A DNA stretch of 64,000 nucleotides from an uncultured Candidatus Saccharibacteria bacterium. Lineage in GTDB: Bacteria; Patescibacteriota; Saccharimonadia; Saccharimonadales; JAGQNJ01. The notes below the pieces were generated by a model. That model did no database searches. It was given only the letters and a program-made list of their open reading frames with translations, and was not told where the DNA came from. The stretch spans positions 450,208 to 514,207 of the forward strand of contig OZ246406.1 in NCBI GenBank assembly GCA_965231045.1, in the 5' to 3' direction. This document shows, piece by piece, positions 37,278-56,545 of the stretch (its first letter is position 1; each line of letters begins with the position of its first letter). The translations under genes and the position numbers were made by a program.

Positions 37278-38681
37278 TTAACCGTTATTCTGTGGTGAAG
37301 ACGAGACACTTACTAGGCCCCAGCGGGTAACATATCTGTTAGAATCACTACCGGTGCGACCTTCAGCATCGCTACACATATAGACAGACATAGTCGAGTT
37401 ATAAAAGAAGTTTTTATACTCTCGTATAGCTGTATCATTTGTGCCAGATACGATTTCAGAGCCAAGCATTACATAGTTATATGTACGGCCATCGTTACGT
37501 ACAACCGAGGCAATATCGCCAGGATTTAGAGAAGTTGCGTTAGCCAATGGCCCACTAAAAGTTGACCCATGACCATAAACCACAAAGTTGCCACCCGCAT
37601 CTGTTGGATAGCTAGAAGTTGGTATACCATCTACGGTTTGCTCATGACCTGCAATTGGCAAATATACATTAATATTGCCGCTGGGATTAGTGGTTTGATT
37701 GTTAATCAGATTTGAACGAGTTCGGTTTGAACGCTTGTAAGCATTTGCAGGCATTTTTTGCTCGGCATCAGTACAGATTTCTGGGCCGGCTGGATCGGGA
37801 ATCAATTTATCAATTGTAGCCTGACCACTTCCAACCATACCGCTAATTTTTTCATGCTCACTCGTCTCATAAACTTGGATATTTTCACAAAGAGCCGGGA
37901 TATTAATTGTTGCAATCATGTCGCCAGGCTTTGCGGTGAATTTTACTGGTGGTTTTGGTGCTTCAGTAGTTGTTGGCGCTACAGTTGTTGGAGCAGCGGT
38001 TGTAGTTGGTGCTTCAGTAGTCGGGGTCTCAGTTGTTGGTTCTGGAGGTGTAATCTTTGGTGCTTCAGCGGCGGCTGGGACTGGTCTCATACTAGAAAAT
38101 TCAGCAACACCCACAATAGCACCAGTTATAACAGTGGTACCGACAGTTATCGCACCAAGTACAACACCAACCCTTTTGGCGCTTGGTTTAACCGTTTCCC
38201 AAGTTCCTGATAAGGCATCCTTAACCTTTGGAAGTTGTGGCGTCCGACGTGCTCGCTTAGGCTTTGGTGAAACAATAGTCACGTCTGGGGTCTCTGAAGA
38301 TTTCGCGTATGTGCGTTTGGCATCAAGTTCACTAACAATCGGAGCGTTAATTACAGGTTTTTTCCATGGTCCTAATGGGATAGCAGGCATGATATCCTCT
38401 ACAACTGGCTCAATAATTGGGCTTACCTCTGGAATAATAGGCTTCGGCTGAAAGTCTTGATAAGTTGGATATTGTTTCTTCTTGTGAGTATCCTTGAGGT
38501 GATTTTTGAGGATTTTATCGATATTAACTTCTGTGAGACCCTCGACGCGAGGCATATCAATACCTGAACCAACAGCATGTAGTGGCCCAATTTCTGGCAT
38601 TACTGTCTCTGTTACAGAGCCTAGGAACGCCTCGATATTGAAATCATTTCGTGTCTCTACAGACATATATAAACTCCTCAC
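37278..38681 (-). CDS. sortase-family transpeptidase with long N-terminal region and Pro/Thr linker
   Basis: The C-terminal region aligns to the sortase pattern: VVYGHGSTF...LNPGD...YNYV...MSVYMCSD (TLxTC-like Cys) ...NRYVTRWGL (Arg). Confidence 0.6.
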   Translation of the reverse strand: MRSLYMSVETRNDFNIEAFLGSVTETVMPEIGPLHAVGSGIDMPRVEGLTEVNIDKILKNHLKDTHKKKQYPTYQDFQPKPIIPEVSPIIEPVVEDIMPAIPLGPWKKPVINAPIVSELDAKRTYAKSSETPDVTIVSPKPKRARRTPQLPKVKDALSGTWETVKPSAKRVGVVLGAITVGTTVITGAIVGVAEFSSMRPVPAAAEAPKITPPEPTTETPTTEAPTTTAAPTTVAPTTTEAPKPPVKFTAKPGDMIATINIPALCENIQVYETSEHEKISGMVGSGQATIDKLIPDPAGPEICTDAEQKMPANAYKRSNRTRSNLINNQTTNPSGNINVYLPIAGHEQTVDGIPTSSYPTDAGGNFVVYGHGSTFSGPLANATSLNPGDIASVVRNDGRTYNYVMLGSEIVSGTNDTAIREYKNFFYNSTMSVYMCSDAEGRTGSDSNRYVTRWGLVSVSSSPQNNG

Positions 38682-38736: not shown

Positions 38737-40944
38737 TTATTTAGGCGGGGTCTGTTCTTCCTTAGGTTTAGCAGGAGCCTTAAAATGATCTGGTGAAAGA
38801 GCTGATTTAGCGAATGAGAAACCAAACGTACTGCCCTTGCCTTCCTCACTATGGAAAATAAGTGCTCCGCCTTGCGCCACAATAACTTTCTTGGCCATAA
38901 ATAACCCTAGACCCGTGCCATCTGGCCGAGCTTTTTTGGCATTGCCAGCTCGATAAAACTTACCAAATAAATGGTGTTGTTCTTCTTTAGGCACGCCAAT
39001 CCCATCATCAACAACTGTGAATTCTATGCTATCGCCTTTATCTTCAAGATTAACCTGAATGTGTCCGCCGGCTGGTGTGTAATAGATAGCGTTGTCGGCA
39101 AAGTTCATAATTACCTGCCGGATCTTGGTATCATCAAGCATAAGTGTCGGGAACTCTTTTGGCTTATGATAAGTAAGTTCCAGATCACGTCCTTTGGCCG
39201 TCTCTGTAAGTTGAGAGATTTCCCCTTCAACAACCTCAGCCAGGTTAGTTGGTTTAGGCTCAATGATAAATTTACCAGTACGAAGTCTAGAGACATTCAA
39301 TAGATCAGCAATCAAATACACCATACGTTGGGAACTTATAAAGGCTTGGTCGAGCAGCTTCTTTTGAGCGGCACTAATCTTACCGGCGTCACCCTCCATG
39401 ACCATGCTGACATAGCCTTTAACAGAGGTAAGCGGAGTACGTAACTGGTGTGAGGCCATGCTAATGAAGTCATCTTTGGTTTGATCCATCTGCTTCAATT
39501 TTTCATTTGTTCGCCTTAGCTGTCTTGTAGCTTCATTAACTTTCTCCTGCAAAGTTTCGGCAAAATTCTGAATTTCTTCAAACCTTAGCGAGTTTTGGAT
39601 AGCAATAACCAACTCATCTGATATGATCTCAAGCATTTTTGTATCTTGTGATGAATAAGGATTCCCACTCTTTTTTGGCCCCAGAATAATATAACCTAGT
39701 CCTTCACTTACCTTTTTCGGGGTATCCGTGAGTCTTGCTATAACAGATATATTGTTTCTTCTTAAGATTTCTCCTAAACCTCTATTTTCTTCACCAAGTT
39801 CGTCAGCAACTATTATCTTTGTGTGCATCTTAGGGGTTACTTCACGAGTATAGTTGATATCCTCTTCCGGGAAGTTCTTCGATGCATCACCAACAATACG
39901 TCTAGGTGTACTTCCCATCTCCTTTATCCCGAAAACGCAAAATTCTGATTTTAGAGTCTGCCCAATAACAGTTGAACTTTTTTTAAGTAGTTCTTCTAGC
40001 TCAATTGTTCCGACAAGCACTTTATTCAATTGATCTATCAGAACCTGGGGCTCATATGCATCCCGATAAAAAAGCCTGTTCGTAAATTTATCAAAGAATT
40101 TCTTTGCCGGAGGAAAGGAGAACGCCAGAACCACAGCTAACACAACATAAAATACCTGCTCGTTAAATGATAAATGAGTCTTGAATGCAAAAATATTGGC
40201 AATATTAAATGCAATTAGCGAATAAACTGCACCTAGGAAAATTATTGACAACGCATAACCTAGAGACCTAGCAACAATTAAGCGTATATCAAATAATTTA
40301 TGCCTAATAATCGCATATGCTGTTGCCCCAACAAAAAACACCGTGCCTGCCGGACCAAGTTTGGCAGTAACCCAACTTGTAACAAAGATTGGAAGAATAA
40401 CATTGAAAACTAATGCCCAGATAAAACTAGACATAAAACCAAATGCAACAAACTGAGCTTGCATTTTTTCAATCTGATCAACTTTATGTCGGTTTTTAAT
40501 GTAAACAACTAGGGCATATGTAAAAAGTAGTAGAACAATTACTGTGTAACCGTTATACATCAAACCTGGAACTACATCTGTACCGTCAGTACGAACTTTT
40601 ACTCCATAAACAACGAGGTTTGTTACACTGAAAATAATACCTACTGCGGTTACGAATGTAACATATAGTAAGCCTTTCTTTGTAAAACCAAGCTTTAAGG
40701 GGAAAACTCTTGAAAAAAGAGCTAATAATCCTGAGACTACTACTGGGAAGAAAAAAGCTGCTTTTGCGAAGAAAAGCCTTAGGTCAGGAGAAGCATTATC
40801 TGTAAAATAACTTGATATACTCCATAAACAAATTGAAAGGCTCATCGCCAAGAATATGCGATTAACAGCTGATTTTGTATTTCTTGCAAAAACTAGAAAA
40901 CCTACAAAAGCATTAATTAAGACAATGAAAATCAAGATTGCCAT
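38737..40944 (-). CDS. sensor histidine kinase with polytopic N-terminal membrane domain
   Basis: About 8 TM segments. HisKA H-box MASHQLRTPLT. HATPase N/G boxes (NFADNAIYYTP, DDGIGVP, GTGLGL). Confidence 0.85.
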   Translation of the reverse strand: MAILIFIVLINAFVGFLVFARNTKSAVNRIFLAMSLSICLWSISSYFTDNASPDLRLFFAKAAFFFPVVVSGLLALFSRVFPLKLGFTKKGLLYVTFVTAVGIIFSVTNLVVYGVKVRTDGTDVVPGLMYNGYTVIVLLLFTYALVVYIKNRHKVDQIEKMQAQFVAFGFMSSFIWALVFNVILPIFVTSWVTAKLGPAGTVFFVGATAYAIIRHKLFDIRLIVARSLGYALSIIFLGAVYSLIAFNIANIFAFKTHLSFNEQVFYVVLAVVLAFSFPPAKKFFDKFTNRLFYRDAYEPQVLIDQLNKVLVGTIELEELLKKSSTVIGQTLKSEFCVFGIKEMGSTPRRIVGDASKNFPEEDINYTREVTPKMHTKIIVADELGEENRGLGEILRRNNISVIARLTDTPKKVSEGLGYIILGPKKSGNPYSSQDTKMLEIISDELVIAIQNSLRFEEIQNFAETLQEKVNEATRQLRRTNEKLKQMDQTKDDFISMASHQLRTPLTSVKGYVSMVMEGDAGKISAAQKKLLDQAFISSQRMVYLIADLLNVSRLRTGKFIIEPKPTNLAEVVEGEISQLTETAKGRDLELTYHKPKEFPTLMLDDTKIRQVIMNFADNAIYYTPAGGHIQVNLEDKGDSIEFTVVDDGIGVPKEEQHHLFGKFYRAGNAKKARPDGTGLGLFMAKKVIVAQGGALIFHSEEGKGSTFGFSFAKSALSPDHFKAPAKPKEEQTPPK

Positions 40945-40966: not shown

Positions 40967-41809
40967 CTAATCTATTTCCGGCAAAACATATTCAAACTCA
41001 AGACCAGAACTTTTTGTATATAAATCATATATATCTTCGCTAAAAGCTTTCACTTTCTCTAGCCCTGTATAAAGATCAGTATAAACAGGTATGCTAGCCT
41101 TTGAACCTTCAAAAGGCTCAAAATCAGTCCCCTCGAAAGGAGTAAAAGGCTCACCCCAAGCCTGCATCATATTATAAATGTGGCTATCTACTATAGTTGC
41201 CCAGTGATTGTAACCATTTGCTAGTGACCATCTTACACAGGTGGAGTAAAGCACTGCGCTTGCACCATCCTTTGAATGGCCACTAGAATACTCTGGCATT
41301 ACAGCCATGGTAGTAATATCAACTGTATGATCAGGATCATATCCCATTTCAAGTTTTCTTTTTTCAGGTGAATCATCTTGCGATTTCCAAAGACTATTTG
41401 GTGCAACTATAGCATCAATCGTTATTAGCGAGTCATTTACTGGCTTAACAATCCTGATATTGCCTACCGGCTTTTGATTCTCATAATCTACAATTATCAA
41501 GAAAGTACTTGCCTCATCATATGGTTCATACATTTCTTTCATTTTGCCAATGTCATTTTTAAAACGCACCTCAAAGTTTTTCCATTCAATAAACCTAGCA
41601 ATATCAGATAATGGATTACTGCCGTCTACAATGTGAACGCCAAGATTTCTCCCCTGACGTATTTCATCGCTTGGGGTCAATTCACCAATTAATTCACTGA
41701 TTCGTTCTGGTTGCAAAGCTTCTATTGACCAATCAGCAACCCAGTCAGAAGAAGTATTGTCTATGTGTGGTCTTTCGGCATCAATCGAACTTTGTATATC
41801 TAAAGACAT
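40967..41809 (-). CDS. GNAT-fold (Acetyltransf_5 / N-acyl amino acid synthase-like) protein
   Basis: The pattern ...YEPYDEASTFLIIVDYENQKPVGNIRIV... and ...DITTMAVMPEYS... resembles the OlsB/LuxI-like acyltransferase fold. Assignment is tentative. Confidence 0.45.
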   Translation of the reverse strand: MSLDIQSSIDAERPHIDNTSSDWVADWSIEALQPERISELIGELTPSDEIRQGRNLGVHIVDGSNPLSDIARFIEWKNFEVRFKNDIGKMKEMYEPYDEASTFLIIVDYENQKPVGNIRIVKPVNDSLITIDAIVAPNSLWKSQDDSPEKRKLEMGYDPDHTVDITTMAVMPEYSSGHSKDGASAVLYSTCVRWSLANGYNHWATIVDSHIYNMMQAWGEPFTPFEGTDFEPFEGSKASIPVYTDLYTGLEKVKAFSEDIYDLYTKSSGLEFEYVLPEID

Positions 41810-42150
41810 TAAAATTCCTTGTAATCAAGATCTGTGGCTTCAAAAAAATCGTGCGTAAAGTTAATCGCATCTTGAACATCAAACTTCTTACAAGTATAAA
41901 TATCAACGCTAAAAAATAAAATGGGCTGTTCCCAGGCATAAAAATGAGCCCCAGAACTCTCCCAGTGAATCCAACCAGCCTCACCATATTTATCGGAACG
42001 GTGCGTAACTGGATCTAGCAAGGTCTTCATACCAATAACATCAGACAGCTTTGACAAATATTGCTTGATTTCATGAGCAGTTATATTTTTCTTTGGATAG
42101 CCTTCAATTACTGCTCTTTGTCTATAAATTTGTGGCGCAAGATCTCTCAT
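41809..42150 (-). CDS. S-adenosylmethionine decarboxylase-like pyruvoyl enzyme (SpeH/AdoMetDC fold)
   Basis: WESSGAHFYAWEQ...VDIYTCK aligns to ESH-LTIHTWPE...IDLFTCG of class-1 AdoMetDC, including the E-S self-cleavage site. Confidence 0.6.
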   Translation of the reverse strand: MRDLAPQIYRQRAVIEGYPKKNITAHEIKQYLSKLSDVIGMKTLLDPVTHRSDKYGEAGWIHWESSGAHFYAWEQPILFFSVDIYTCKKFDVQDAINFTHDFFEATDLDYKEF

Positions 42151-42292: not shown

Positions 42293-43033
42293 TTATGGTT
42301 TAATTACGCTTCCGTCTCTTAGCTCAATCACTCTTTCAGCATGGTTCTTTATATTTGGCTCATGTGAGACGCAGATGATAGATGTACCTGCATATTGGGT
42401 AATATCAAAAAAGAGTGATAATGTTCTCTCCGTCATCTTTGAGTCAAGGGCTGCCGTAGGCTCATCGGCAACAACAAGTTCGGGTCTATGCGCAAACCCA
42501 GCAACGATGGCTACTCTTTGAGCCTCACCACCAGATAGCGCTCCAGCATATTTTCCTAGATGTTTCGAAATCTCTAAATTATGAATCAAGAAGTCAAGCC
42601 ACTCTGGATCCAGTTTATTACCCCTGGCTTGTTGCGGTAATTTTATGTATTGTTCCGCAGTTAAATATGGGTCTAGATAAGGATTCTGAGCAATGTATCC
42701 AAGATATCTTGAGCGATATGCAGCCAGGTAACGTTCCGCTTTTGTTTCTAGTCTTAACTTTTTAACTGCCCTACCTAGAGTTGATTCAGATACCATGGAC
42801 CTATTAACAAATGATCCCTCATTAATACCAGTATGACTAACAGAACCTTCTGTAGGTTTTTGAAGACCGTGAATTACAGACGCAAACGTGCTTTTCCCGG
42901 CACCAGATGGACCAATTATTGCTGTAAAGCCAGAATGAAAATCAACCGATACATCATCTAAAACAATTGCGCCTTCCCTTACTACACTAACACCTTCTAC
43001 TTTAATGATTGGGTCACTTTCTAAACTACTCAT
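42293..43033 (-). CDS. ABC transporter ATP-binding protein
   Basis: Walker A GPSGAGKST, signature LSGGEAQR, Walker B LVVADEPT. Confidence 0.88.
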   Translation of the reverse strand: MSSLESDPIIKVEGVSVVREGAIVLDDVSVDFHSGFTAIIGPSGAGKSTFASVIHGLQKPTEGSVSHTGINEGSFVNRSMVSESTLGRAVKKLRLETKAERYLAAYRSRYLGYIAQNPYLDPYLTAEQYIKLPQQARGNKLDPEWLDFLIHNLEISKHLGKYAGALSGGEAQRVAIVAGFAHRPELVVADEPTAALDSKMTERTLSLFFDITQYAGTSIICVSHEPNIKNHAERVIELRDGSVIKP

Positions 43034-44511
43034 AGAGTATGCCCCTTGCTAAGATCCATATTTGAAGCCTCGCGTCGTATAGCTATAGCCGTCCCAGCCT
43101 TATTTATTCCATAATTTATTCCTACAATACAAAGAACAGTCTTAACACTCGGAGCCAATGCGGCTCCAGGAATACCAGTATTAGTATATACATCCGCTAG
43201 TAGCACAACTGGTATAGCAATAAGGGATGAGTATAGTGCCTCTGATTCAGCAATTTCTGAATACTTTTTACTAAGTGCATGCTTATCCAGTCCATTAGCA
43301 CCCCAGACAGTGTTAATTCGTGTATTTTCTTTTAACCTATTCCTAGCCCTATTACCTAAGGCTGCTGCCGCAAGCAATGATGCGACCGTCATTGCCTGAA
43401 GAACCAACGGGTTAACACTGTTTTCACCTGTTTCTTTACTATTCTGTACGAATTTATCAACAGGAACAACAAATGCACGATCTGTTAGAGTGTCTGGGGA
43501 AAGCCCTTGCTCAGCCAAAAGTTTTTGAATCTCAGTTTTTTGACCTTGTGCAAGTATTAGAGAATATGGCTGATCTGGGGTATTTCTAACACAGCGTGCA
43601 AAATCTTCATTATTAAATAGTACAGGTAGTAGGTTTAACCCACTTTTCTCCTCAATAACATTATTAACAGTTAAAGTCAGCCCATCCATAGTAAAGGTTT
43701 CACCCTTTTTGACGCCAAGCTCTTTTGCAACATCTACAGAAATTTCTTTACATTCTTTATCAGCAAGTGGAATTTGTGTTGTTTCACTTGGCAAACTACC
43801 TGTAAGTAGTTGGATTTTTGTCCCTTCTTCACCCTTACGCTGGCCAGAATGCCACTCCCAGGTTCCTGGCACTGCCGTTATATTATGCTCTTTGGCATGT
43901 GCTAAAAATCCATTTGCTCTATTAATTGAAATACTAGTGTTATTAGCTAATTCTGGTACTGGAGTATTAGATATAACATAATTTCCAATATTATCACTTG
44001 GTCTTTCCGCCCCAAGTATATTCGCGAAATAATCAGCAACTTTTGCTTGTGAACTACTTACTTCGTGAGCAGTATCAACAAAATTACCTATCATTGCACC
44101 CGTACCTACAACGATCAAGCTTGCTTGTGCGACCCTTCTACCAACCGAACCTCTTGACTGATTTCTGGCATGAGCCATTTCATGTATAGCTTGATCCTCA
44201 GAGCTAAACGCCCGCCTAATATGCCCGACGCCCCTCTTAACAAGTAATCCAGCTCCTAAAATTGCTCCGCCTTCCACAGCTAAATTAAAAGCATTTGCTA
44301 GCCCATCAGATGGGCTAACTGAATCGCTCGCAGTGCTGACTATAGGGCTGTCAAGATTTGTGTTTTCGTGCGTAACAACACCCACTCCTGCAGCCACACC
44401 TCCGAGCATAATTAAACCCGTAGCAACTTGTCCAAATTTTCGCCTTAAAGCATTGTTATATTCAGATTGAGACCCAGATTCAGCACCACCAATTTTAGCT
44501 AGTTCAGACAT
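43030..44511 (-). CDS. FtsX/MacB-like ABC permease with large extracytoplasmic domain
   Basis: N-terminal TM, an ~300-aa extracytoplasmic region, and C-terminal TM cluster. ATGA coupling to the ATPase gene. Confidence 0.6.
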   Translation of the reverse strand: MSELAKIGGAESGSQSEYNNALRRKFGQVATGLIMLGGVAAGVGVVTHENTNLDSPIVSTASDSVSPSDGLANAFNLAVEGGAILGAGLLVKRGVGHIRRAFSSEDQAIHEMAHARNQSRGSVGRRVAQASLIVVGTGAMIGNFVDTAHEVSSSQAKVADYFANILGAERPSDNIGNYVISNTPVPELANNTSISINRANGFLAHAKEHNITAVPGTWEWHSGQRKGEEGTKIQLLTGSLPSETTQIPLADKECKEISVDVAKELGVKKGETFTMDGLTLTVNNVIEEKSGLNLLPVLFNNEDFARCVRNTPDQPYSLILAQGQKTEIQKLLAEQGLSPDTLTDRAFVVPVDKFVQNSKETGENSVNPLVLQAMTVASLLAAAALGNRARNRLKENTRINTVWGANGLDKHALSKKYSEIAESEALYSSLIAIPVVLLADVYTNTGIPGAALAPSVKTVLCIVGINYGINKAGTAIAIRREASNMDLSKGHTL

Positions 44512-44575: not shown

Positions 44576-45514
44576 TTATGTCTGTCTAGGCTCAATTGTA
44601 TACTTATGAAAAAAGTTGCATGTTCCTAGAGTAAGCATAAACATCCTTAGTTCATCAAGGCCGTAGTCCGGGCCCAGATTTACATACGTATATCCTTGCT
44701 CAATGAATCTTTTTGCAAACATATATCCCAGTATTTCAAAACCAAAGGTAAGCCTGTTGGTAGCTTTAATATGCTTCATGACAACATACTTACCGTCGCT
44801 TGAGGGTTGATAGAGACAAAATCCCCAAATTTTGCCGTTAACAAATAGGCATAGATTATCCACTCCAAGCTTATCAGAGTTAATAATATAATTCTCAATG
44901 CACTCACCCTCTATAGAGCCAAAGTCATTTAGTTTATTTTTTACTCTCCATTTAGCTGCTGCATTTAGTAAAAGATCTCTCTCTGATTTAACTTGCAGAT
45001 CTAAACTTGTTACCGATATCTTTTTATCTTCTAAAAAGTTAATAACTTTAGCTGCTACGCGTTGCCAGTGTGGCGCCATATTTTTCAGCGGATAGAAATG
45101 GGAAAGTGGCAACACATATTCATTCAAATGTCTTTGCTCTTTAAACGTATACATATCATGATATCTGATAAAACTAAGCACGAACTCTGGAACATTTACT
45201 AGTCTCGCTGGATCACCTTTTTCTCTTAGATAATCGAAAATTGCACATATAGACTCATCAATTTTTCTAGTCCCAACAATTGATAGACCAGTATTTTCTT
45301 CATCTCCAGGCATCCAATACGGTATTACCAGATTTCCATTAAGCTCACTAACCGATATATCGCCTAGAGGGTTCCACCATGACATTAATCCTGGGAAAGA
45401 AATATCATATATGGGTGGATAATTTCGAATTGCCAACTCATATTCGTCCTTTTTTTCCCATGTTAATTTACTAAACTCTGGGAAGGATTTGAAAGTAGAA
45501 AGCCTGGTCTTCAT
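44576..45514 (-). CDS. soluble DUF2156 (LPG-synthase C-terminal / aa-tRNA-dependent transferase fold) protein, paralog 1
   Basis: 312 aa with no TM. NYPPIYDISFPGLMSWWNPLG...LSIVGTRKIDESI... and C-terminal NLGPDYGLDELRMFMLTLG fit the DUF2156 pattern. Clear paralog of 46433-47416. Confidence 0.55.
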   Translation of the reverse strand: MKTRLSTFKSFPEFSKLTWEKKDEYELAIRNYPPIYDISFPGLMSWWNPLGDISVSELNGNLVIPYWMPGDEENTGLSIVGTRKIDESICAIFDYLREKGDPARLVNVPEFVLSFIRYHDMYTFKEQRHLNEYVLPLSHFYPLKNMAPHWQRVAAKVINFLEDKKISVTSLDLQVKSERDLLLNAAAKWRVKNKLNDFGSIEGECIENYIINSDKLGVDNLCLFVNGKIWGFCLYQPSSDGKYVVMKHIKATNRLTFGFEILGYMFAKRFIEQGYTYVNLGPDYGLDELRMFMLTLGTCNFFHKYTIEPRQT

Positions 45515-45632
45515 CTGGGCAACCTCTTATTGCCCCTTGTTATATATTAATTTCGCTAAAAATACAACGATAAGCATCACTTTTATTTGAACGATCTACT
45601 ATTTATCTGTTACATTTAATTAAACTAAGCTT

Positions 45633-46016
45633 ATGCAGTCTAAACAAAAAATAGTAATCGTAGAGGATGAGCCGTCGATACAAGAAATGTATCGGATGAA
45701 GTTAAACTTATCCGGGTTTGACGTACAAACCGCAAATAATGGCGAAGATGGGCTAAAAGTAATCGATGCTTTTGAACCTCACCTGATTTTGCTCGATCTT
45801 AAGATGCCAGTTATGAGTGGTGACATCATGCTTGAAAAACTGCGTGAGACCAAAAAAGGCGCAGAGATTCGTGTAATAGTTCTCACAAACATTAGTCGTG
45901 ATGAAGCGCCACACAATCTGCGATTCCTAAATGTTGATCGGTATATTGTAAAAGCACATTACACACCGACACAGGTGATAAATGTCGTTGAAGAAGTTCT
46001 TGGTATAAAGAAGTAA
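45633..46016 (+). CDS. stand-alone response-regulator receiver protein (CheY-like), copy 1
   Basis: 127 aa. EDE acidic pair, phospho-Asp context ILLDLKMP, VLTN, and VKA Lys. Confidence 0.85.
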   Translation: MQSKQKIVIVEDEPSIQEMYRMKLNLSGFDVQTANNGEDGLKVIDAFEPHLILLDLKMPVMSGDIMLEKLRETKKGAEIRVIVLTNISRDEAPHNLRFLNVDRYIVKAHYTPTQVINVVEEVLGIKK

Positions 46017-46052
46017 GCTTGCAGTTGTAAGTAATAAGCGTACCATGAGGAT

Positions 46053-46421
46053 ATGGGTGCTAGGATCGCAATACTTGAAGATGATCAGCCCATACGCGAG
46101 ATGTATGAGCTCAAACTGAAGAGTGCCGGATACACTGTTAAAGCAGCCGGTGACGGCGTTCAAGGCCTAACGCTTTTGGAAAAATTCAGGCCTGACTTAA
46201 TACTTCTCGACCTTATGATGCCAGAAATGAACGGTGATGAAGTCGCCGAAAAGGTTCGCTCAACTAAGTGGGGAGCAAAAACAAAAATTATTGTTCTGAC
46301 TAATATTAGTTTGGATGAAGCGCCTGAAAAGTTACAAAAACTTGGAATACTAGATTATGTTGTCAAAGCCAATCACACACCTTCCCAGGTTATCGAAATA
46401 GTTCAAAACGCATTACATTAA
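46053..46421 (+). CDS. stand-alone response-regulator receiver protein, copy 2
   Basis: 122 aa. EDD, ILLDLMMPEMNG, VLTN, VKA. Confidence 0.85.
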   Translation: MGARIAILEDDQPIREMYELKLKSAGYTVKAAGDGVQGLTLLEKFRPDLILLDLMMPEMNGDEVAEKVRSTKWGAKTKIIVLTNISLDEAPEKLQKLGILDYVVKANHTPSQVIEIVQNALH

Positions 46422-46432
46422 AAAATGTAAGA

Positions 46433-47416
46433 TTACCTAATTCTTCTTTTAACCCCATAGTAGCGCCTACTCTTCACATAAGATTCTTCCGGTCGGACAG
46501 TATACTTTTTAAATGCATTTTTTGGCCTTAAAGAAAGTAGGTGAGCTCGATATTTTGGGTCACCTATATGTATAACCATATTTACGAATTTCGCGTTTTC
46601 TTTAGTAAATAATTCTGCCATCTTGTAGCATGCAAAGCTATGTGATCCAGGCACATCGAATGTAAATCCAGAGTACTTTATTACCTTATAGTTGCTATTT
46701 AGAGGTGATTCATATAATGAAAAGCTATTGATTTCATCATCTATATAAAGCGAAACAACTTCTGTGCCAAGTTTGGTTGCATTGTTAATTGAATACAGGA
46801 ATGCATTCTCTGCGTGACTTGGAAGACAATTAACTTCAGCTTTTTCTTTCCAGTCAAAATAACAGTTAATTATTAACTCTCGGTTTTCTGGCTTACTGAG
46901 ATCTATCTTTTTTAGGTCAACCCTTTTCCCTTTTGTGGCTCGTAAAAAGCTTCCGACTTTGATTCGTAGAAATATTGGCATTGACTTAATTTCTGCCGTT
47001 TCTTCGACCAACAATAAGGATTCTACGTAGTCAGGCTCATCCTCACAGCCAAACATCTCGGGGTACCTAATGTGTCCTAGTACAAAATCTGGTACGTGAA
47101 CTAGCTTACTTTCCTGGTCTTGAGCTTTTTGGTAATCAAAAATTTCGCAAATTGATTCGTCAATTTTATTAGTGCCCACCAGTGAAAGTCCTGAGTTTTC
47201 GTCATCTCCGGGCAGCCAATATGATATGACCAAGTTCCCGTGAATTTGTGAAACCTTACAATTACCAAGTGAGCTCCACCAACTCATTAAACTCGAAAAA
47301 GAGATTTCCGAGATTGGTGGATAATCTCGAATTAAGGCATTGTAAGCATCTCTATCAGACAACTTTAATTCATAAAACTCTGGAAATTCTGGGAGAACGA
47401 GTGGCTTTATCTTCAT
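46433..47416 (-). CDS. soluble DUF2156-like protein, paralog 2
   Basis: 327 aa. DYPPISEISFSSLMSWWSSLG...LSLVGTNKIDESI, collinear with paralog 1. Confidence 0.55.
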   Translation of the reverse strand: MKIKPLVLPEFPEFYELKLSDRDAYNALIRDYPPISEISFSSLMSWWSSLGNCKVSQIHGNLVISYWLPGDDENSGLSLVGTNKIDESICEIFDYQKAQDQESKLVHVPDFVLGHIRYPEMFGCEDEPDYVESLLLVEETAEIKSMPIFLRIKVGSFLRATKGKRVDLKKIDLSKPENRELIINCYFDWKEKAEVNCLPSHAENAFLYSINNATKLGTEVVSLYIDDEINSFSLYESPLNSNYKVIKYSGFTFDVPGSHSFACYKMAELFTKENAKFVNMVIHIGDPKYRAHLLSLRPKNAFKKYTVRPEESYVKSRRYYGVKRRIR

Positions 47417-47521
47417 ACAACACCTTTCGTTAGCCTTAAAATAGCACTAATAACTACAGGGGTCAACAGATATCAGTAAAATGTTATTGAGTTAGTATCA
47501 ACAATGCCGTAGGATTAATAT

Positions 47522-47893
47522 ATGTCGGCCAAGATCGCAATCATAGAAGACGATCAAGCTATTTCTCAGATGTACCGCATCAAATTTGAGGCGGAAGGTT
47601 TTGTTGTCGAGACTGCCGAAAACGGCAAACTTGGATTAGAACTTGCCGAAAATATGAAGCCAGATATTATTCTGCTGGACCTTATGATGCCAGAAATGAA
47701 CGGCGATGAAATGCTGTCCAAACTCCGCAAAACCCCGTTTGGCAAAAATACAAAAGTAGTCATCCTTACCAACATGGGCGAGCAAGAAGTCCCAGAAGAA
47801 GTTAAGAAACTTGGTGTTGTGGCAATTATTCTTAAGGCTGATATGACACCGCGCCAGGTAGCTGAACTTGTTAAGAAACAACTCAACAAATAG
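47522..47893 (+). CDS. stand-alone response-regulator receiver protein, copy 3
   Basis: 123 aa. EDD, ILLDLMMPEMNG, ILTN, LKA. Confidence 0.85.
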   Translation: MSAKIAIIEDDQAISQMYRIKFEAEGFVVETAENGKLGLELAENMKPDIILLDLMMPEMNGDEMLSKLRKTPFGKNTKVVILTNMGEQEVPEEVKKLGVVAIILKADMTPRQVAELVKKQLNK

Positions 47894-47911: not shown

Positions 47912-49267
47912 ATGCGAATAGCGATTTTAGGATATGGGGATCAAGGACGTAGTGCCTTTGAGTACTGGAACAAGTCAGAAAATCAGATTACAATCTGCGA
48001 TCAAATTTTGCCAGATGATTTACCTGAAGGCGTTGATACCAAGTCTGATGGTGATTATTTAAGTAACTTGCATGAGTTTGACATGCTAGTTCGTACTCCA
48101 GGTCTTCACCCAACGGAAATCTTAAAAGCCAACGAATTGCACCCAGAAGTAATGGAAAAAGTAACAACCGTTACCAACGAGTTTTTTCGTGTTTGTCCGG
48201 CTCCAATCATTGGTATAACCGGAACAAAAGGCAAAGGAACAACCTCGAGTCTAATCGCTGCTTTTTTGCAGCAAGCGGGTAGACGCGTTCATCTAGGCGG
48301 CAATATTGGCATACCACCTCTTGACCTACTAAAGAATAACATCCAGCCGGATGATCTCGTTGTACTCGAACTAGCCAATTTTCAGCTTATTGATCTAAAG
48401 TATTCACCGCACATTGCCGTATGTCTTATGATTACGCCAGAACACCTCAACTGGCATCCTGATATGTTTGAGTACGTAAATGCCAAAAAGCAAATGTTTA
48501 TTCATCAACAAGTACATGATCTTGCAGTCTATAACAGTGCTAATCTTTACTCGCAAGAAATCGCTGATAGCTCGCCAGGCTATAAGTTAACTTATGAAGT
48601 CCCCTTGCCTGATCAGGACCCAACAGATGAAGATGGATTTTACGTCAAGGATGACCATATATTTGTAGCTGGTGAAAAAATTTGCAGCACTCATGATATC
48701 CTCCTACCCGGACGTCATAATTTAGAGAATATTTGTGCGGCACTTGCTGCAGTCTGGGAACTTATTCGCGAAGACAAACACATTGTCAAAGAGGTATTAA
48801 AGACATTTGCTGGCTTGCCACACCGTTTGCAGACAGTACTTAACTATGGCGGCGTACAAATCATTGATGATTCATTTGGCACAACTCCTGAAACCGCAAT
48901 CGTGGCTATCGATGCCTTTAAACAACCAAAAATTATGATTGTTGGTGGTTCGGATAAGGGATCATCATATGAAGAGATGGCTCAAAAAATTGTAAAAAGT
49001 AATGTTAAGTACCTGGTAGCCATTGGTGAAACTGGTCCAAAGATTGTCGATCTAGTTAAAAAATACTCGAATTACCGCAACGTCCCTTTCATTGTGCTTG
49101 ATGAAACTGTGAAAATGCCCGAGATCTTAGCTGTTGCACTTCAGCAGGCAAAAAAGGGTGACATGGTAATGTTATCAACCGGTAGCGCCAGCTTTGGAAT
49201 GTTTGCAAACTACAAAGATCGTGGCGAGCAATTTCAAGCCGCAGTTAAAGCCTTACCGACTGCCTAA
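47912..49267 (+). CDS. murD: UDP-N-acetylmuramoylalanine--D-glutamate ligase
   Basis: GITGTKGKGTT P-loop and Mur-ligase middle/C-terminal domains (GLPHRLQ). Confidence 0.85.
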   Translation: MRIAILGYGDQGRSAFEYWNKSENQITICDQILPDDLPEGVDTKSDGDYLSNLHEFDMLVRTPGLHPTEILKANELHPEVMEKVTTVTNEFFRVCPAPIIGITGTKGKGTTSSLIAAFLQQAGRRVHLGGNIGIPPLDLLKNNIQPDDLVVLELANFQLIDLKYSPHIAVCLMITPEHLNWHPDMFEYVNAKKQMFIHQQVHDLAVYNSANLYSQEIADSSPGYKLTYEVPLPDQDPTDEDGFYVKDDHIFVAGEKICSTHDILLPGRHNLENICAALAAVWELIREDKHIVKEVLKTFAGLPHRLQTVLNYGGVQIIDDSFGTTPETAIVAIDAFKQPKIMIVGGSDKGSSYEEMAQKIVKSNVKYLVAIGETGPKIVDLVKKYSNYRNVPFIVLDETVKMPEILAVALQQAKKGDMVMLSTGSASFGMFANYKDRGEQFQAAVKALPTA

Positions 49268-49915
49268 AATCCGTTTCAATTGTTCAATAACCGGCTTTTC
49301 TGGCTGTAAAATTTCAGCTCGGCCAGCTGCTTCATCGTGAATCAAATCCTCGATCCAGTGATAATGTGTACAGCCAAGAACGATAACGTCAGCCCCTTGA
49401 TTGCAGGCTTCATCAGTAATTTTACGGATGTGATCCTTGTCGATATTATTGGTCTCAATCATATGTGACCAGTCGCTGCAGTCAGGTTCTAGGACTTTTA
49501 CTCCCTTAGCAAATTCATCCTTAAGCTGAGCGTAACGCTTACTAGCTAAGGTTGTTGGAGTAGCACAGACCGCAATGACCTTTGATTTTGTAGCCGCTGC
49601 TGCCGGCTTAACCATTGGCTCCATGGCAATAAGAGGAACTTTAATTTCATCTCTCAAGTCTGAAATAATCGTTGTACTTACTGTATTACAGGCAATAACA
49701 ATTACATCTACACCCAGTTCAACTAATGATTCAAGAATTGGTACAACATATTCAAGCAATTCCTGAGGCTGCTTATTGGCGTAAGGGAAGTGGTCCGGAT
49801 CATTGGTAAACAAAACTTCATCATCTGGCAAAGCCTCTTGGATTGCTTGAGCTACTGATAGTCCGCCGATCCCAGAATCAAAAACACCAATTTTACTCAC
49901 TTTTTTTCTCCGCAA
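49253..49915 (-). CDS. murI: glutamate racemase
   Basis: GVFDSGIGGLSV, IACNT and GCTHY motifs. Confidence 0.88.
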   Translation of the reverse strand: MRRKKVSKIGVFDSGIGGLSVAQAIQEALPDDEVLFTNDPDHFPYANKQPQELLEYVVPILESLVELGVDVIVIACNTVSTTIISDLRDEIKVPLIAMEPMVKPAAAATKSKVIAVCATPTTLASKRYAQLKDEFAKGVKVLEPDCSDWSHMIETNNIDKDHIRKITDEACNQGADVIVLGCTHYHWIEDLIHDEAAGRAEILQPEKPVIEQLKRILGSR

Positions 49916-54307: not shown

Positions 54308-56545
54308 TCATTTGAGAGTTTTTTGTTTTTGTAGATCTACGGCCATAGCTTTTTCTAGATTTAGGGCAATGAGTGCCAAGTCACCAACATCGCCGTCATA
54401 AGCAAAGTAATTTTCTTGCCAGTCTGGCTCAAACTTATTTTTAAACTGCTCTAGCCCGGCGGCTGAGAAACGGCCGGCACCAAGCGTTCGAGCAATTCGA
54501 GCTAATCGGCCTGTCATTTGTGCTAAAGGCACAAAACCGATGTCAAAGTATTTATATCTGTCTTCCTCGTTAAGTTGATGCAGTACGTTATAAATCAAAA
54601 AATTGTTAGCGTTAGGTGCATCTTCTATAAAACGAATTAAATCAATCGTCGTTTGACGTAAGTTATTGTATATTGGCAGTTCATTTACAAAAGCAACTAC
54701 TCTTTGCTGTTCATCACGCAAAAGATGAATTCGGCAGCGCTGCAAATAACTTACATCAAAATACCCAAGCGCAAAGCCTTCCTCCTGATGCCCATCACGT
54801 TTTAGCCACTCATCCGAAACAGCCTTAAGTTCATTTAATAACTCATGGGAGTGTGGCGCCTGTAACACCTCGTACTTATAACCAAGCTTTGTGCCTTTAT
54901 TATTTTGCCAACGCCACCATTTGTTACGGGCTGTTTCATTGCAGTACTTATCAATATCAACTACAGCACTAGCCCCAACTTTTAGAAAATTCAATGCATC
55001 ATTGCTGTATAGACTTCTGGTTTTATCGGAAATTACCATAAAACACACTCTCCAACCATGCGTGCGACAATACGACATAAAGTCATCGAGTATATTTTGT
55101 TGATCTTTTGGAGTATCGGCAACTGGATCAGCTAACGCAAACGCAACTGGTCCAACTACTTTATAAGCAATAAAAGCCCGCCTATTACCAAGCCAAAAGT
55201 ACTGTTTATCATGAGGCCAAATCTTAAAGAAATCTTCAGTTGATCTAGAATACTGATGAAGCAAAGCCTCGGCTTCTTCAATCTCATTAAGCGAGGCTAC
55301 GCCATGTTCATGCTGGGCTGGCTGAAATAGCGCCCAAAGCAAAAAGGCTGTGCTAGAAATAACCAAGAGTGTAACTATACGCGCCCTTATGGTTTCTTTT
55401 ACGTGACTTTGAGTAAAATGACTGGTGCTACTTATGATTCTGCCTGAACGATGTAAGGTGGAGTTAACAAGCGGATGTGCTGGTGTATGTAGCAGCAACT
55501 CACCAATAATGACAATAGCAATCATCACTCCACCTAGCATGATAGTTATATCTACTATTCGAGATCTCCATGATTGTGCAACAACCCCCCTGTTAAAGTA
55601 GTCGCGAGCTGTAAAAACAAACGCGAACGTAATAATATAAAGTGCCAGTAATGCTGGCTGAGGAATAATAATGGCGTATTTCAAAACTTCAAAGCCGATA
55701 AGCATAACTAAGATTTGCCAGGCCCGCCGCTCACCTCGAGCGATATGACGACTTATATAAAGAAAGACAAGCCCCACGATTAAACCATGTTGACTGAGCC
55801 ATGTATTATCTTCGGCGAAATAAAAACTCTGCAGGAATCCAAAGTAGCCAATATGAACAACGGCCAATAATATTGTTGCTATGCCATTTATGCCGACCCA
55901 AACCGCCAGAACCTTATTTACGTTGCTTGTTGCTCTTGGTGGATGTGGCTCATTATCAAACTGGGTTACTGCAAACCAAGCCAACCAAACTATGGTGACG
56001 GATTGATACAAGAACTGAGAAAAAGTCCCAAAGTGGTATATAGATGCATACTGGGTCAAGAACAGACCGCCGTACAGAATCTGGAATGTCAAAAAGAATC
56101 CTGATGGTACGCGCTTCTTCCTAAAGGTATCCCAAGCAGCAAGTGCCAACATGGCACCTACCGCAACAGTGTTGTCAATGGCGTGCCCAATTACAGCCTC
56201 AGCATTTTCTTCTCTACAAAATCCACTGGTTATATGACAGCCAGTTGGTATAAACGCGTCAACGGCAATCGCAATACCTATAACGGCTAGAAGCCCGCTA
56301 GAAATACTAAGCCCCCTTTGTTTTTTCATCATGTAGCCCGCCATACCCAAAAGCAGTAAACCGGCAATAACATCACAAGCCCTGAACAACCAAGAATATG
56401 CCATACCTGGCACTTCAAAGTGATTAATAAGTGCGTCTGGACTGGTTAAAATTGGGTTTATTATTGGGGCAAATAGCCAGCTAGTAGCCGTTAAAAGGAA
56501 GGCTAGTTGCCACAAATTTTTCCAGTGGCGTTTTAGAAACGACAT
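54308..56545 (-). CDS. MprF-like aminoacyl-phosphatidylglycerol synthase (polytopic N-terminus + DUF2156 C-terminus)
   Basis: 745 aa. About 12 TM segments, then FFKIWPHDKQYFW...AFIAYKVVGPVAFALADPV, typical of LPG_synthase_C. Confidence 0.75.
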   Translation of the reverse strand: MSFLKRHWKNLWQLAFLLTATSWLFAPIINPILTSPDALINHFEVPGMAYSWLFRACDVIAGLLLLGMAGYMMKKQRGLSISSGLLAVIGIAIAVDAFIPTGCHITSGFCREENAEAVIGHAIDNTVAVGAMLALAAWDTFRKKRVPSGFFLTFQILYGGLFLTQYASIYHFGTFSQFLYQSVTIVWLAWFAVTQFDNEPHPPRATSNVNKVLAVWVGINGIATILLAVVHIGYFGFLQSFYFAEDNTWLSQHGLIVGLVFLYISRHIARGERRAWQILVMLIGFEVLKYAIIIPQPALLALYIITFAFVFTARDYFNRGVVAQSWRSRIVDITIMLGGVMIAIVIIGELLLHTPAHPLVNSTLHRSGRIISSTSHFTQSHVKETIRARIVTLLVISSTAFLLWALFQPAQHEHGVASLNEIEEAEALLHQYSRSTEDFFKIWPHDKQYFWLGNRRAFIAYKVVGPVAFALADPVADTPKDQQNILDDFMSYCRTHGWRVCFMVISDKTRSLYSNDALNFLKVGASAVVDIDKYCNETARNKWWRWQNNKGTKLGYKYEVLQAPHSHELLNELKAVSDEWLKRDGHQEEGFALGYFDVSYLQRCRIHLLRDEQQRVVAFVNELPIYNNLRQTTIDLIRFIEDAPNANNFLIYNVLHQLNEEDRYKYFDIGFVPLAQMTGRLARIARTLGAGRFSAAGLEQFKNKFEPDWQENYFAYDGDVGDLALIALNLEKAMAVDLQKQKTLK

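Follow-up and report, generated by a model that had tools for sequence, protein, structure and literature searches.

What function do soluble aminoacyl-transferase-like proteins have beside stand-alone receivers in a bacterium with hardly any regulators? Saccharibacteria are obligate epibionts with tiny genomes, very few recognisable regulators, and almost no transcription factors. To our knowledge, little has been learnt of how they perceive their hosts or the state of their envelope. The question is raised by a 64,000-nucleotide stretch of contig OZ246406.1 from an uncultured Candidatus Saccharibacteria bacterium (the window), in which two genes for soluble DUF2156 proteins, paralogs A and B, each diverge from genes for receiver-only proteins. 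A sequence-only reading had proposed duplicated modules, with the receiver as a regulatory subunit of the transferase. We find instead that the receiver genes belong to a clade-wide scaffold, in which a histidine kinase with a seven-transmembrane (7TM) sensor and a highly conserved receiver next to murD bracket fast-exchanging amino-acid-tailoring enzymes. That DUF2156 is optional cargo of this exchanging cassette is the explanation we favour, tentatively, as the likeliest of those weighed here. The scaffold provides a concrete and testable entry point to the signal of the kinase, the role of single-domain receivers, and the acceptors of bacterial free-standing DUF2156 proteins. Literature searches found nothing on two-component systems of Saccharibacteria or on the function of bacterial stand-alone DUF2156 proteins, and nothing relevant on DUF2156 with receivers or on Tn-seq coverage of the locus.

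A conserved scaffold of kinase, receivers, and murD

The genes of the scaffold and the two DUF2156 genes are as follows.

38737..40944, minus strand: 7TM sensor histidine kinase, 735 aa (Pfam HisKA_7TM/HisKA/HATPase_c; about seven hydrophobic segments)
44576..45514, minus strand: soluble DUF2156 paralog A, 312 aa, tandem GNAT, a predicted aminoacyl-tRNA (aa-tRNA)-dependent aminoacyl transferase
45633..46016, plus strand: REC1-type stand-alone receiver, 127 aa (PF00072), of a facultative and more variable clade
46053..46421, plus strand: REC2, an extra stand-alone receiver, 122 aa (PF00072), basal to the REC1-type clade
46433..47416, minus strand: soluble DUF2156 paralog B, 327 aa, relocated to a position between REC2 and REC3; its ortholog in the related locus L002 is the second tandem copy
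47522..47893, plus strand: REC3-type stand-alone receiver, 123 aa, the conserved core receiver, with murD 19 bp downstream
47912..49267, plus strand: murD, UDP-MurNAc-L-Ala:Glu ligase family (Pfam Mur_ligase_M/C), the conserved partner downstream of REC3

The five open reading frames for A, B, and the receivers have exactly the coordinates and strands that the sequence-only reading gave. The same gene order is present in three independent assemblies, and the arrangement is therefore not an assembly artefact. The three receivers are receiver-only proteins (PF00072, E = 1e-18 to 1e-22) and the only receivers in the 64-kb window. As had been read from the sequence, all of them keep the acidic (E/D-D) pocket, the phospho-Asp, the Thr, and the Lys; these phospho-site residues are kept in 118–121 of 121 related receivers. 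None of the three matched the OmpR-type Trans_reg_C domain in Pfam.

Related loci, designated by L numbers, were collected in two ways. The DUF2156-anchored set has 17 loci, each from a distinct GTDB species, 16 of them with enough flank. The REC3-anchored set, the best 80 of 376 confirmed stretches, is unbiased as to DUF2156. The whole kinase-to-receiver interval was captured in 23 receiver-anchored loci. The adjacency of receivers and DUF2156 is not unique to this genome, since receivers lie divergently upstream, within about 3 kb, in 15 of the 16 DUF2156-anchored loci (L012 is the sole DUF2156 locus without a receiver in the available flank). The order in this set runs on one side from REC1 through REC3 and MurD to MurI (or another gene) and FolD, and on the other side through one to four DUF2156 genes and two or three variable genes to the 7TM kinase. 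In the receiver-anchored loci, which come from metagenomes, the kinase gene points away from an interval of 0–5 kb, which is followed by the REC1-type gene, the REC3-type gene, and MurD. Among distant members, L104 retains the receiver/kinase context, and so does L101, where the genes are arranged differently and the kinase is of the GAF type.

When loci are anchored on the receiver, DUF2156 is found within only 5 of the 23 complete intervals, and in 2 of the 23, the kinase directly abuts the receiver with no cassette. A REC1-type receiver is present in 15 of these intervals (4 with DUF2156) and absent from 8 (1 with DUF2156). Copy numbers, which range from one to four per locus for both receivers and DUF2156, do not track each other, and the REC1/REC3 tandem pair occurs in most loci irrespective of the DUF2156 copy number. 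Neighbour-joining trees divide the receivers into two old clades, REC1-type and REC3-type, with REC2 basal within the former. On these and the DUF2156 tree, we reject duplicated modules: REC1 and REC3 are old paralogs, independent of DUF2156 copy number. The ortholog of B in L002 sits in tandem right behind an A-type gene. The layout in the window, where B stands between REC2 and REC3, is therefore that of a tandem DUF2156 pair and a receiver array which have been locally rearranged.

The REC3-type receivers are 70–86% identical across loci whatever the cassette content, even where the cassette is empty, and they always adjoin murD, with a gap of 0–45 bp in most loci. The identity of REC1-type receivers across loci is 45–68%. 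Because REC3 is conserved irrespective of the cassette, its partner would have to be universal, and the common receiver target would therefore not be DUF2156 itself. In L015 (5166-5707, minus strand), the receiver genes occur as two overlapping fragments of 60 and 133 aa, possibly a frameshift, a pseudogene, or an assembly error in that metagenome-assembled genome.

Could the receivers be phospho-switchable regulatory subunits that bind soluble DUF2156 directly and gate aminoacyl transfer? We consider this very improbable. The divergent adjacency in the 15 loci and in the distant L104 and L101 is in its favour, the receivers have no output domain and hence must work through protein contacts, and the REC1-type is the more variable clade and adjoins the cassette. 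However, the low frequency of DUF2156 in receiver-anchored cassettes, the presence of REC1 without regard to DUF2156, the cassette-independent conservation of REC3, and the uncorrelated copy numbers all argue against it. Nor is there excess co-evolution: with the kinase core controlled, mirror-tree partial correlations are 0.13 for REC1–DUF2156 and −0.12 for REC3–DUF2156, both nonsignificant at n = 9 and low power. No receiver is seen beside the distant DUF2156 operons of L105 and L106, as far as their short contigs extend, and the good sigma-70-like promoter before DUF2156 in several loci is no argument for post-translational control. Direct contact between a phosphorylated receiver and DUF2156 is conceivable, but nothing specific favours it. 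A dedicated receiver-regulated DUF2156 enzyme is thus unlikely, and the analysis corrects the attractive yet unsupported idea of a dedicated receiver and transferase pair.

The kinase had been correctly described as the only histidine kinase in the window, but it is not a remote bystander 3.6 kb away. It belongs to the conserved unit, since its synteny with the receivers holds throughout the clade and it ends the string of genes led by DUF2156_A. Synteny of the kinase with REC3/murD is seen in 32 full-length cases, and REC3 distances follow those of the kinase core (r = 0.60), as expected if kinase and REC3 are a cognate pair. The 7TM kinase is predicted to be the likely cognate kinase of all three receivers. 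In the scaffold explanation, this kinase would phosphorylate REC3, which is probably co-transcribed with murD, and the facultative REC1, and the receivers would act, through protein–protein contact, upon a target that all lineages share.

An alternative kinase of 445–525 aa, with a core 61–69% identical to that of the window kinase and no 7TM region, is found in L034, L038, L046, L052, L033, and L101 (3502-5959). The one in L101 carries GAF_2. Two small unassigned genes (about 94 and 280 aa), possibly a split sensor, precede the shorter kinase in L034, L038, L046, L052, and L101; in L033, it directly abuts the receiver.

Cassette content and the variable kinase sensor

Between the kinase and DUF2156_A, the window contains these cassette genes.

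40967..41809, minus strand: hyp280, an unassigned cassette protein that co-occurs with the AdoMetDC-like gene
41809..42150, minus strand: small pyruvoyl-type AdoMetDC-like decarboxylase, 113 aa (PF02675, E = 6e-10)
42293..43033, minus strand: ABC transporter ATPase, cassette component (PF00005, E = 4e-21)
43030..44511, minus strand: membrane permease, 493 aa, partner of the ABC ATPase (4-bp gene overlap)

The co-directional string in the window thus runs DUF2156_A, permease, ABC ATPase, AdoMetDC-like decarboxylase, hyp280, and kinase. The permease has a large soluble domain between one N-terminal and three C-terminal hydrophobic segments, and a Pfam search gave no family match for it, FtsX/BceB included. 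For hyp280, searches of Pfam and PDB profiles and hhalign comparison with the other cassette families gave only a faint GNAT hint (E = 0.23). This protein is always paired with the AdoMetDC-like gene (L007, L029, L037, L040, L060), and orthologs of the AdoMetDC-like decarboxylase occur in the cassettes of L007, L009, L029, L037, L044, L060, and L101.

Across the loci, the interval between kinase and receivers is a rapidly exchanging cassette of over a dozen unrelated families. Nearly every family with an assignment tailors amino acids or amines: FeeM-like N-acyl-amino-acid-synthase GNATs, ThiF-like adenylating enzymes, decarboxylases of three unrelated types (pyruvoyl arginine decarboxylase, PvlArgDC; AdoMetDC-like; and pyridoxal phosphate (PLP)-dependent Orn/Arg/DAP decarboxylase), a class I/II aminotransferase, a saccharopine-dehydrogenase-like Rossmann protein, a nitroreductase, and a Glu/Leu/Phe/Val dehydrogenase. 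An ABC transporter is present in the cassettes of the window and of L064, where the homologous pair occurs without DUF2156. Genes for EgtD-like S-adenosylmethionine-dependent amino-acid N-methyltransferases (Methyltransf_33) lie directly upstream of DUF2156 arrays in L012 (717-4015), with four tandem DUF2156 copies behind, and in L016 (4695-5915), with two. The gene for the PLP-dependent decarboxylase is found in L034 (4140-5765, plus strand), L042, and L068; the L034 protein has a C-terminal SET (lysine methyltransferase-like) domain, an unusual fusion.

Decarboxylases of the three unrelated folds recur beside DUF2156, also in the distant L101, L105, and L106. A decarboxylase is present in 5 of 5 DUF2156-positive and 4 of 18 DUF2156-negative receiver-anchored intervals (one-sided Fisher p = 0.004, for loci that are not phylogenetically independent).

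The kinase consists of an N-terminal 7TM sensor (residues ~1–220), a middle region, and a HisKA and HATPase_c core. Among 33 full-length kinases, 32 from the loci and the window's own, the mean pairwise identity is 20% for the sensor, 32% for the middle region, and 67% for the catalytic core. With the core controlled, kinases that share more cassette content have more similar sensors (partial r = 0.50, permutation p = 0.0002, n = 29). The correlation is much the same with both MurD and core controlled (r = 0.51, p = 0.0002, n = 19) and with alignment-free normalised bit scores (r = 0.52). MurD identity correlates with that of the kinase core (r = 0.40) and not with that of the sensor (r = 0.02). 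The sensor in the window is among the closest to that of L060, which has the AdoMetDC-like gene and hyp280 and no DUF2156.

Several results weigh against the scaffold explanation. Without the closer relatives, the correlation of sensor and cassette falls to r = 0.20; a few groups (k6, k5, and k1/k4) account for it, and in cassette group k2/k3, sensor identity is not raised. Sensor similarity is unrelated to the presence of DUF2156 itself (r = −0.02). The correlation may be mere linkage of adjacent DNA. Furthermore, transmembrane (TM) regions are generally fast-evolving and AT-rich. This alone could account for some of the divergence of the sensor and some of the GC dip in the window, where a low-GC block (0.33–0.39, flanks ~0.42–0.45) stretches from the half of the kinase gene that encodes the sensor across the two DUF2156 genes. 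A detectable decarboxylase lies within 5 kb in just 15 of 33 DUF2156 loci, and neither a DNA-binding partner nor a defined output of the receivers was found.

Is the gap between kinase and receivers then a hotspot of recombination or insertion in small genomes of conserved gene order, with DUF2156 as a passenger and no functional link? The extreme turnover of the cassette, the empty intervals, and the low-GC block fit this account, as does a sensor correlation that linkage can explain and that weakens among distant pairs. DUF2156 is also found in either orientation and at either cassette end. We nevertheless regard a mere hotspot as unlikely. The cassette families are non-random, given that nearly all the assigned ones modify amino acids or amines, and at least two DUF2156 lineages (HMM scores of ~140–300 vs. 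>400) have been recruited into the same interval. The non-homologous decarboxylases recur with DUF2156 outside the scaffold too, and in the window, the cassette genes have the same direction as the kinase gene and are tightly spaced.

Fold and predicted chemistry of the soluble DUF2156 proteins

The original assignment to DUF2156 holds. Paralog A matches PF09924 LPG_synthase_C (formerly DUF2156) with E = 4e-9 and 36.4 bits, above the gathering score of 27.5. Paralog B has no direct Pfam match; it is 37% identical to A over its full length (E = 4e-60) and scores 407 bits against the family HMM. Most family members carry PF09924 as a precomputed annotation. Neither A nor B has a hydrophobic TM segment, in agreement with the earlier description. 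In a profile search for stand-alone DUF2156 proteins, 2,971 cluster representatives passed E ≤ 1e-3, and 401 passed E ≤ 1e-30; the best 150 of the 2,971 consist almost entirely of stand-alone proteins of ~300 aa, together with shorter fragments.

An AlphaFold2 model of A, built from a 30-sequence family alignment, is a tandem GNAT (pLDDT 90.8, pTM 0.88). The top Foldseek match is 2HQY, a 305-aa free-standing DUF2156 protein from Bacteroides (TM-score 0.77–0.81), which is also the sole significant PDB sequence-profile match (E = 2e-16). Next are the MprF synthase domains 4V36, 5VRV, 4V35, and 6LV0 (TM-score ~0.6), to which A is 12–16% identical, followed by FemX (~0.55) and the aa-tRNA-dependent peptide synthases Sba18/Sbb17 (0.50–0.55). 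A positively charged helix for the tRNA acceptor stem is a criterion of the aa-tRNA transferase domain (PMC6103681). The region between the two GNAT domains is strongly basic (net +3 to +10) in 29 of 30 family members; the helix of A itself has fewer basic residues than the family norm, which counts against this assignment. A C-terminal R/K-K-Y motif and R290 are near-invariant in the soluble family; in FemX and DhpH, a C-terminal Lys is catalytic (PMC12945691).

A and B are not MprF proper, the bifunctional synthase/flippase, since they have no N-terminal integral-membrane flippase domain. The soluble-family HMM fails to detect the MprF-like protein encoded in the window, and hhalign of the soluble family against the C-terminal domain of that protein gave no significant alignment, so that the transfer of MprF catalytic residues was dropped. 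Membership in FemXAB (PF02388) was also rejected, as there was no FemAB match at E ≤ 1 and the fold is nearer to DUF2156 structures. Fem-like chemistry is possible despite the lack of a FemAB match.

What, then, do these proteins aminoacylate? The DUF2156 enzymes characterised by experiment all have lipids as their aminoacylation substrates (PMC6103681, PMC8913301, PMC7334510), and double-GNAT enzymes of biosynthetic clusters aminoacylate small amines or hydroxylamines (PMC12945691). The recurring decarboxylase partner suggests amine acceptors. From the cassette context and this known chemistry, the most economical reading is a predicted aa-tRNA-dependent transfer to an amine or hydroxyl acceptor from neighbouring enzymes. 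Soluble DUF2156 is therefore most likely an aa-tRNA-dependent transferase carried as optional cassette cargo. Within the swappable cassette of amino-acid and amine-tailoring enzymes, it would most likely add an amino acid to an acceptor made or handled by the cassette enzymes, in the window the AdoMetDC-like decarboxylase, hyp280, and the ABC exporter. The product could be an aminoacylated small molecule or an envelope or lipid decoration, and would be exported or inserted into the envelope. The kinase could respond to it through its cassette-covarying membrane sensor.

The nearest described proteins are 2HQY from Bacteroides thetaiotaomicron and fungal ErgS, which glycylates ergosterol (PMC8913301). 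Like A and B, they have about 300 aa, no membrane domain, a tandem GNAT, and a basic inter-domain helix. 2HQY has no assigned function, and, unlike the window genes, neither is described beside a two-component system or a decarboxylase. MprF and the aminoacyl-phosphatidylglycerol synthases share the Pfam family (paralog A), the fold, and the tRNA-binding basic helix (PMC6103681), but MprF has a flippase/TM domain and A and B do not. VlmA, DhpH/DhpK, PacB, and Orf11/Sba18/Sbb17 are soluble double-GNAT enzymes in small biosynthetic clusters (PMC12945691), where a context of tailoring enzyme and exporter is similar to that of the window cassette. However, those enzymes are nearer to FemX than to DUF2156, and homologous pathway genes are absent from the window locus.

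An alternative that ranks next after the scaffold explanation, although somewhat unlikely, is an envelope-modification regulon. The kinase and receivers would detect stress on the envelope and regulate cassette enzymes for the decoration of membrane lipids or peptidoglycan, and DUF2156, beside murD/murI, would aminoacylate a lipid (MprF/ErgS-like) or a peptidoglycan precursor (Fem-like). The two explanations overlap and differ mainly in the nature of the product. The lipid substrates of the characterised DUF2156 enzymes favour an envelope role, and the Pfam name of the FeeM-like enzymes gives their products as N-acyl amino acids, likewise lipids. The ABC transporters of the window and L064, and the tight operonic arrangement of REC3 and murD with murI or MurL alongside, also fit. 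The tandem arrays of one to four paralogs recall FemX/A/B, with FemX as a structural neighbour, and a 7TM sensor with no large extracellular domain fits intramembrane sensing. On the other hand, A and B have neither a FemAB match nor a membrane anchor, and the genome already encodes a membrane MprF-like protein. The murD linkage persists where DUF2156 is absent and so belongs to REC3, not to DUF2156. The decarboxylase, aminotransferase, and methyltransferase partners equally suggest small-molecule tailoring.

The closest analogy to such a regulon, the GraRS/ApsRS-VraFG systems (Bce-type) that regulate mprF in Firmicutes, likewise links a kinase, a receiver, and an ABC transporter to an MprF-type function (references cited in PMC6103681). 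The window receivers lack the OmpR-type DNA-binding domain of GraR/BceR, the kinase is of the 7TM type, and the permease has no FtsX/BceB signature. Moreover, the association in the window is one of gene adjacency rather than of a demonstrated regulon.

The window receivers resemble CheY, DivK, Spo0F, and CpdR in being receiver-only with an intact phospho-acceptor site, and their partial NCBIfam matches include DivK/CpdR-type models, all with scores far below the cut-offs. A conserved operon with murD is a feature of none of these proteins, while REC3 in the window has one. No CheA, Hpt, or other known receiver partner was found near the window receivers.

In agr and comQXPA, hypervariable biosynthetic genes lie beside a hypervariable N-terminal kinase sensor, and the kinase core and receiver are conserved. 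The window locus is similar, in that a variable cassette is contiguous with a variable sensor next to a conserved kinase core and receiver. A further possibility is pherotype-like, tRNA-dependent small-molecule signalling by lineage-specific aminoacylated amines or lipo-amino compounds, in which an amine from the decarboxylase and an amino acid added by DUF2156 would form a signal that is exported by the ABC transporter, sensed by the co-varying 7TM kinase, and relayed to the murD-linked receivers. In a variant, a REC1- or REC2-type receiver would additionally gate the transferase directly. We consider such signalling distinctly unlikely; if true, it would couple tRNA-dependent signalling to cell-wall synthesis in Patescibacteria. 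Unlike agr and comQXPA, the window receivers have no LytTR/HTH output, no peptide precursor was found in the locus, and linkage by itself may account for the covariation, which is moderate.

Each component is of a known kind: the free-standing DUF2156 proteins, the single-domain receivers, and the accessory operons linked to two-component systems. The architecture described here, its clade-wide conservation, and the covariation of sensor and cassette were not found in the searchable literature.

Intergenic regions and bordering genes

The two divergent intergenic regions of the window are the following.

45515..45632, no strand: between DUF2156_A and REC1
47417..47521: between DUF2156_B and REC3, with a promoter-like site facing B

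The site facing paralog B is TTGACC-N17-TATTTT (47438-47466). Upstream of DUF2156 in L005, L007, L010, L011, and L052, a shared sigma-70-like promoter, TTGAC-N15-17-TAGTAT, precedes a conserved CAGTAGTAMCATA leader. A k-mer search of the intergenic regions between receiver and DUF2156 genes gave a maximum sharing of 9 of 13, against a null maximum of 8, with a promoter-like element common to a subset and no convincing operator. Between DUF2156_A and the permease gene, a promoter-like site matches the consensus at 11 of 12 positions (44563-44535, minus strand), so that an internal promoter in the string is possible. The promoter and terminator scan yielded no more sites than expected from shuffled sequence, and it was therefore not used to place operon boundaries.

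PADLOC found no defence system in the window, merely generic matches to REC, ABC, and HATPase domains, and no match for DUF2156, hyp280, the decarboxylase, or the permease.

The MprF-like gene reported earlier at 54308-56545 (minus strand, 745 aa) is confirmed by a PF09924 match (E = 1e-52) and an N-terminal TM region. Apart from a weak match to DUF998, this region had none, the canonical flippase domain of MprF included, and the protein may be an atypical membrane-anchored aa-tRNA transferase.

Directly downstream of the kinase in the window is a gene for a 467-aa sortase-domain protein (37278-38681, minus strand). The corresponding position in L003 (10819-12240), with homologs in L005, L010, and L015, is occupied by a 470–480-aa PKD-domain protein with an LPXTG anchor. 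Surface-protein genes therefore border the scaffold beyond the kinase.

At the other border, murD is followed in the window by murI (glutamate racemase; 47912-49915 for the two genes), and the murD-adjacent slot in several other loci (L004, L005, L008, L015) holds a gene of 428–474 aa. In L104 (4180-6740), murD adjoins the gene for MurL (PF26299/PF26298), which acts as L-Glu epimerase in the MurD2/MurL route. The route of D-Glu supply thus seems lineage-dependent around the same REC3–murD core. Just past MurL–MurD in L104 (750-4193) are genes for argininosuccinate synthase, an ADI/DDAH-family amidinotransferase-like protein, and an amidohydrolase; these arginine-metabolism genes may be relevant to the arginine/decarboxylase theme of the cassettes.

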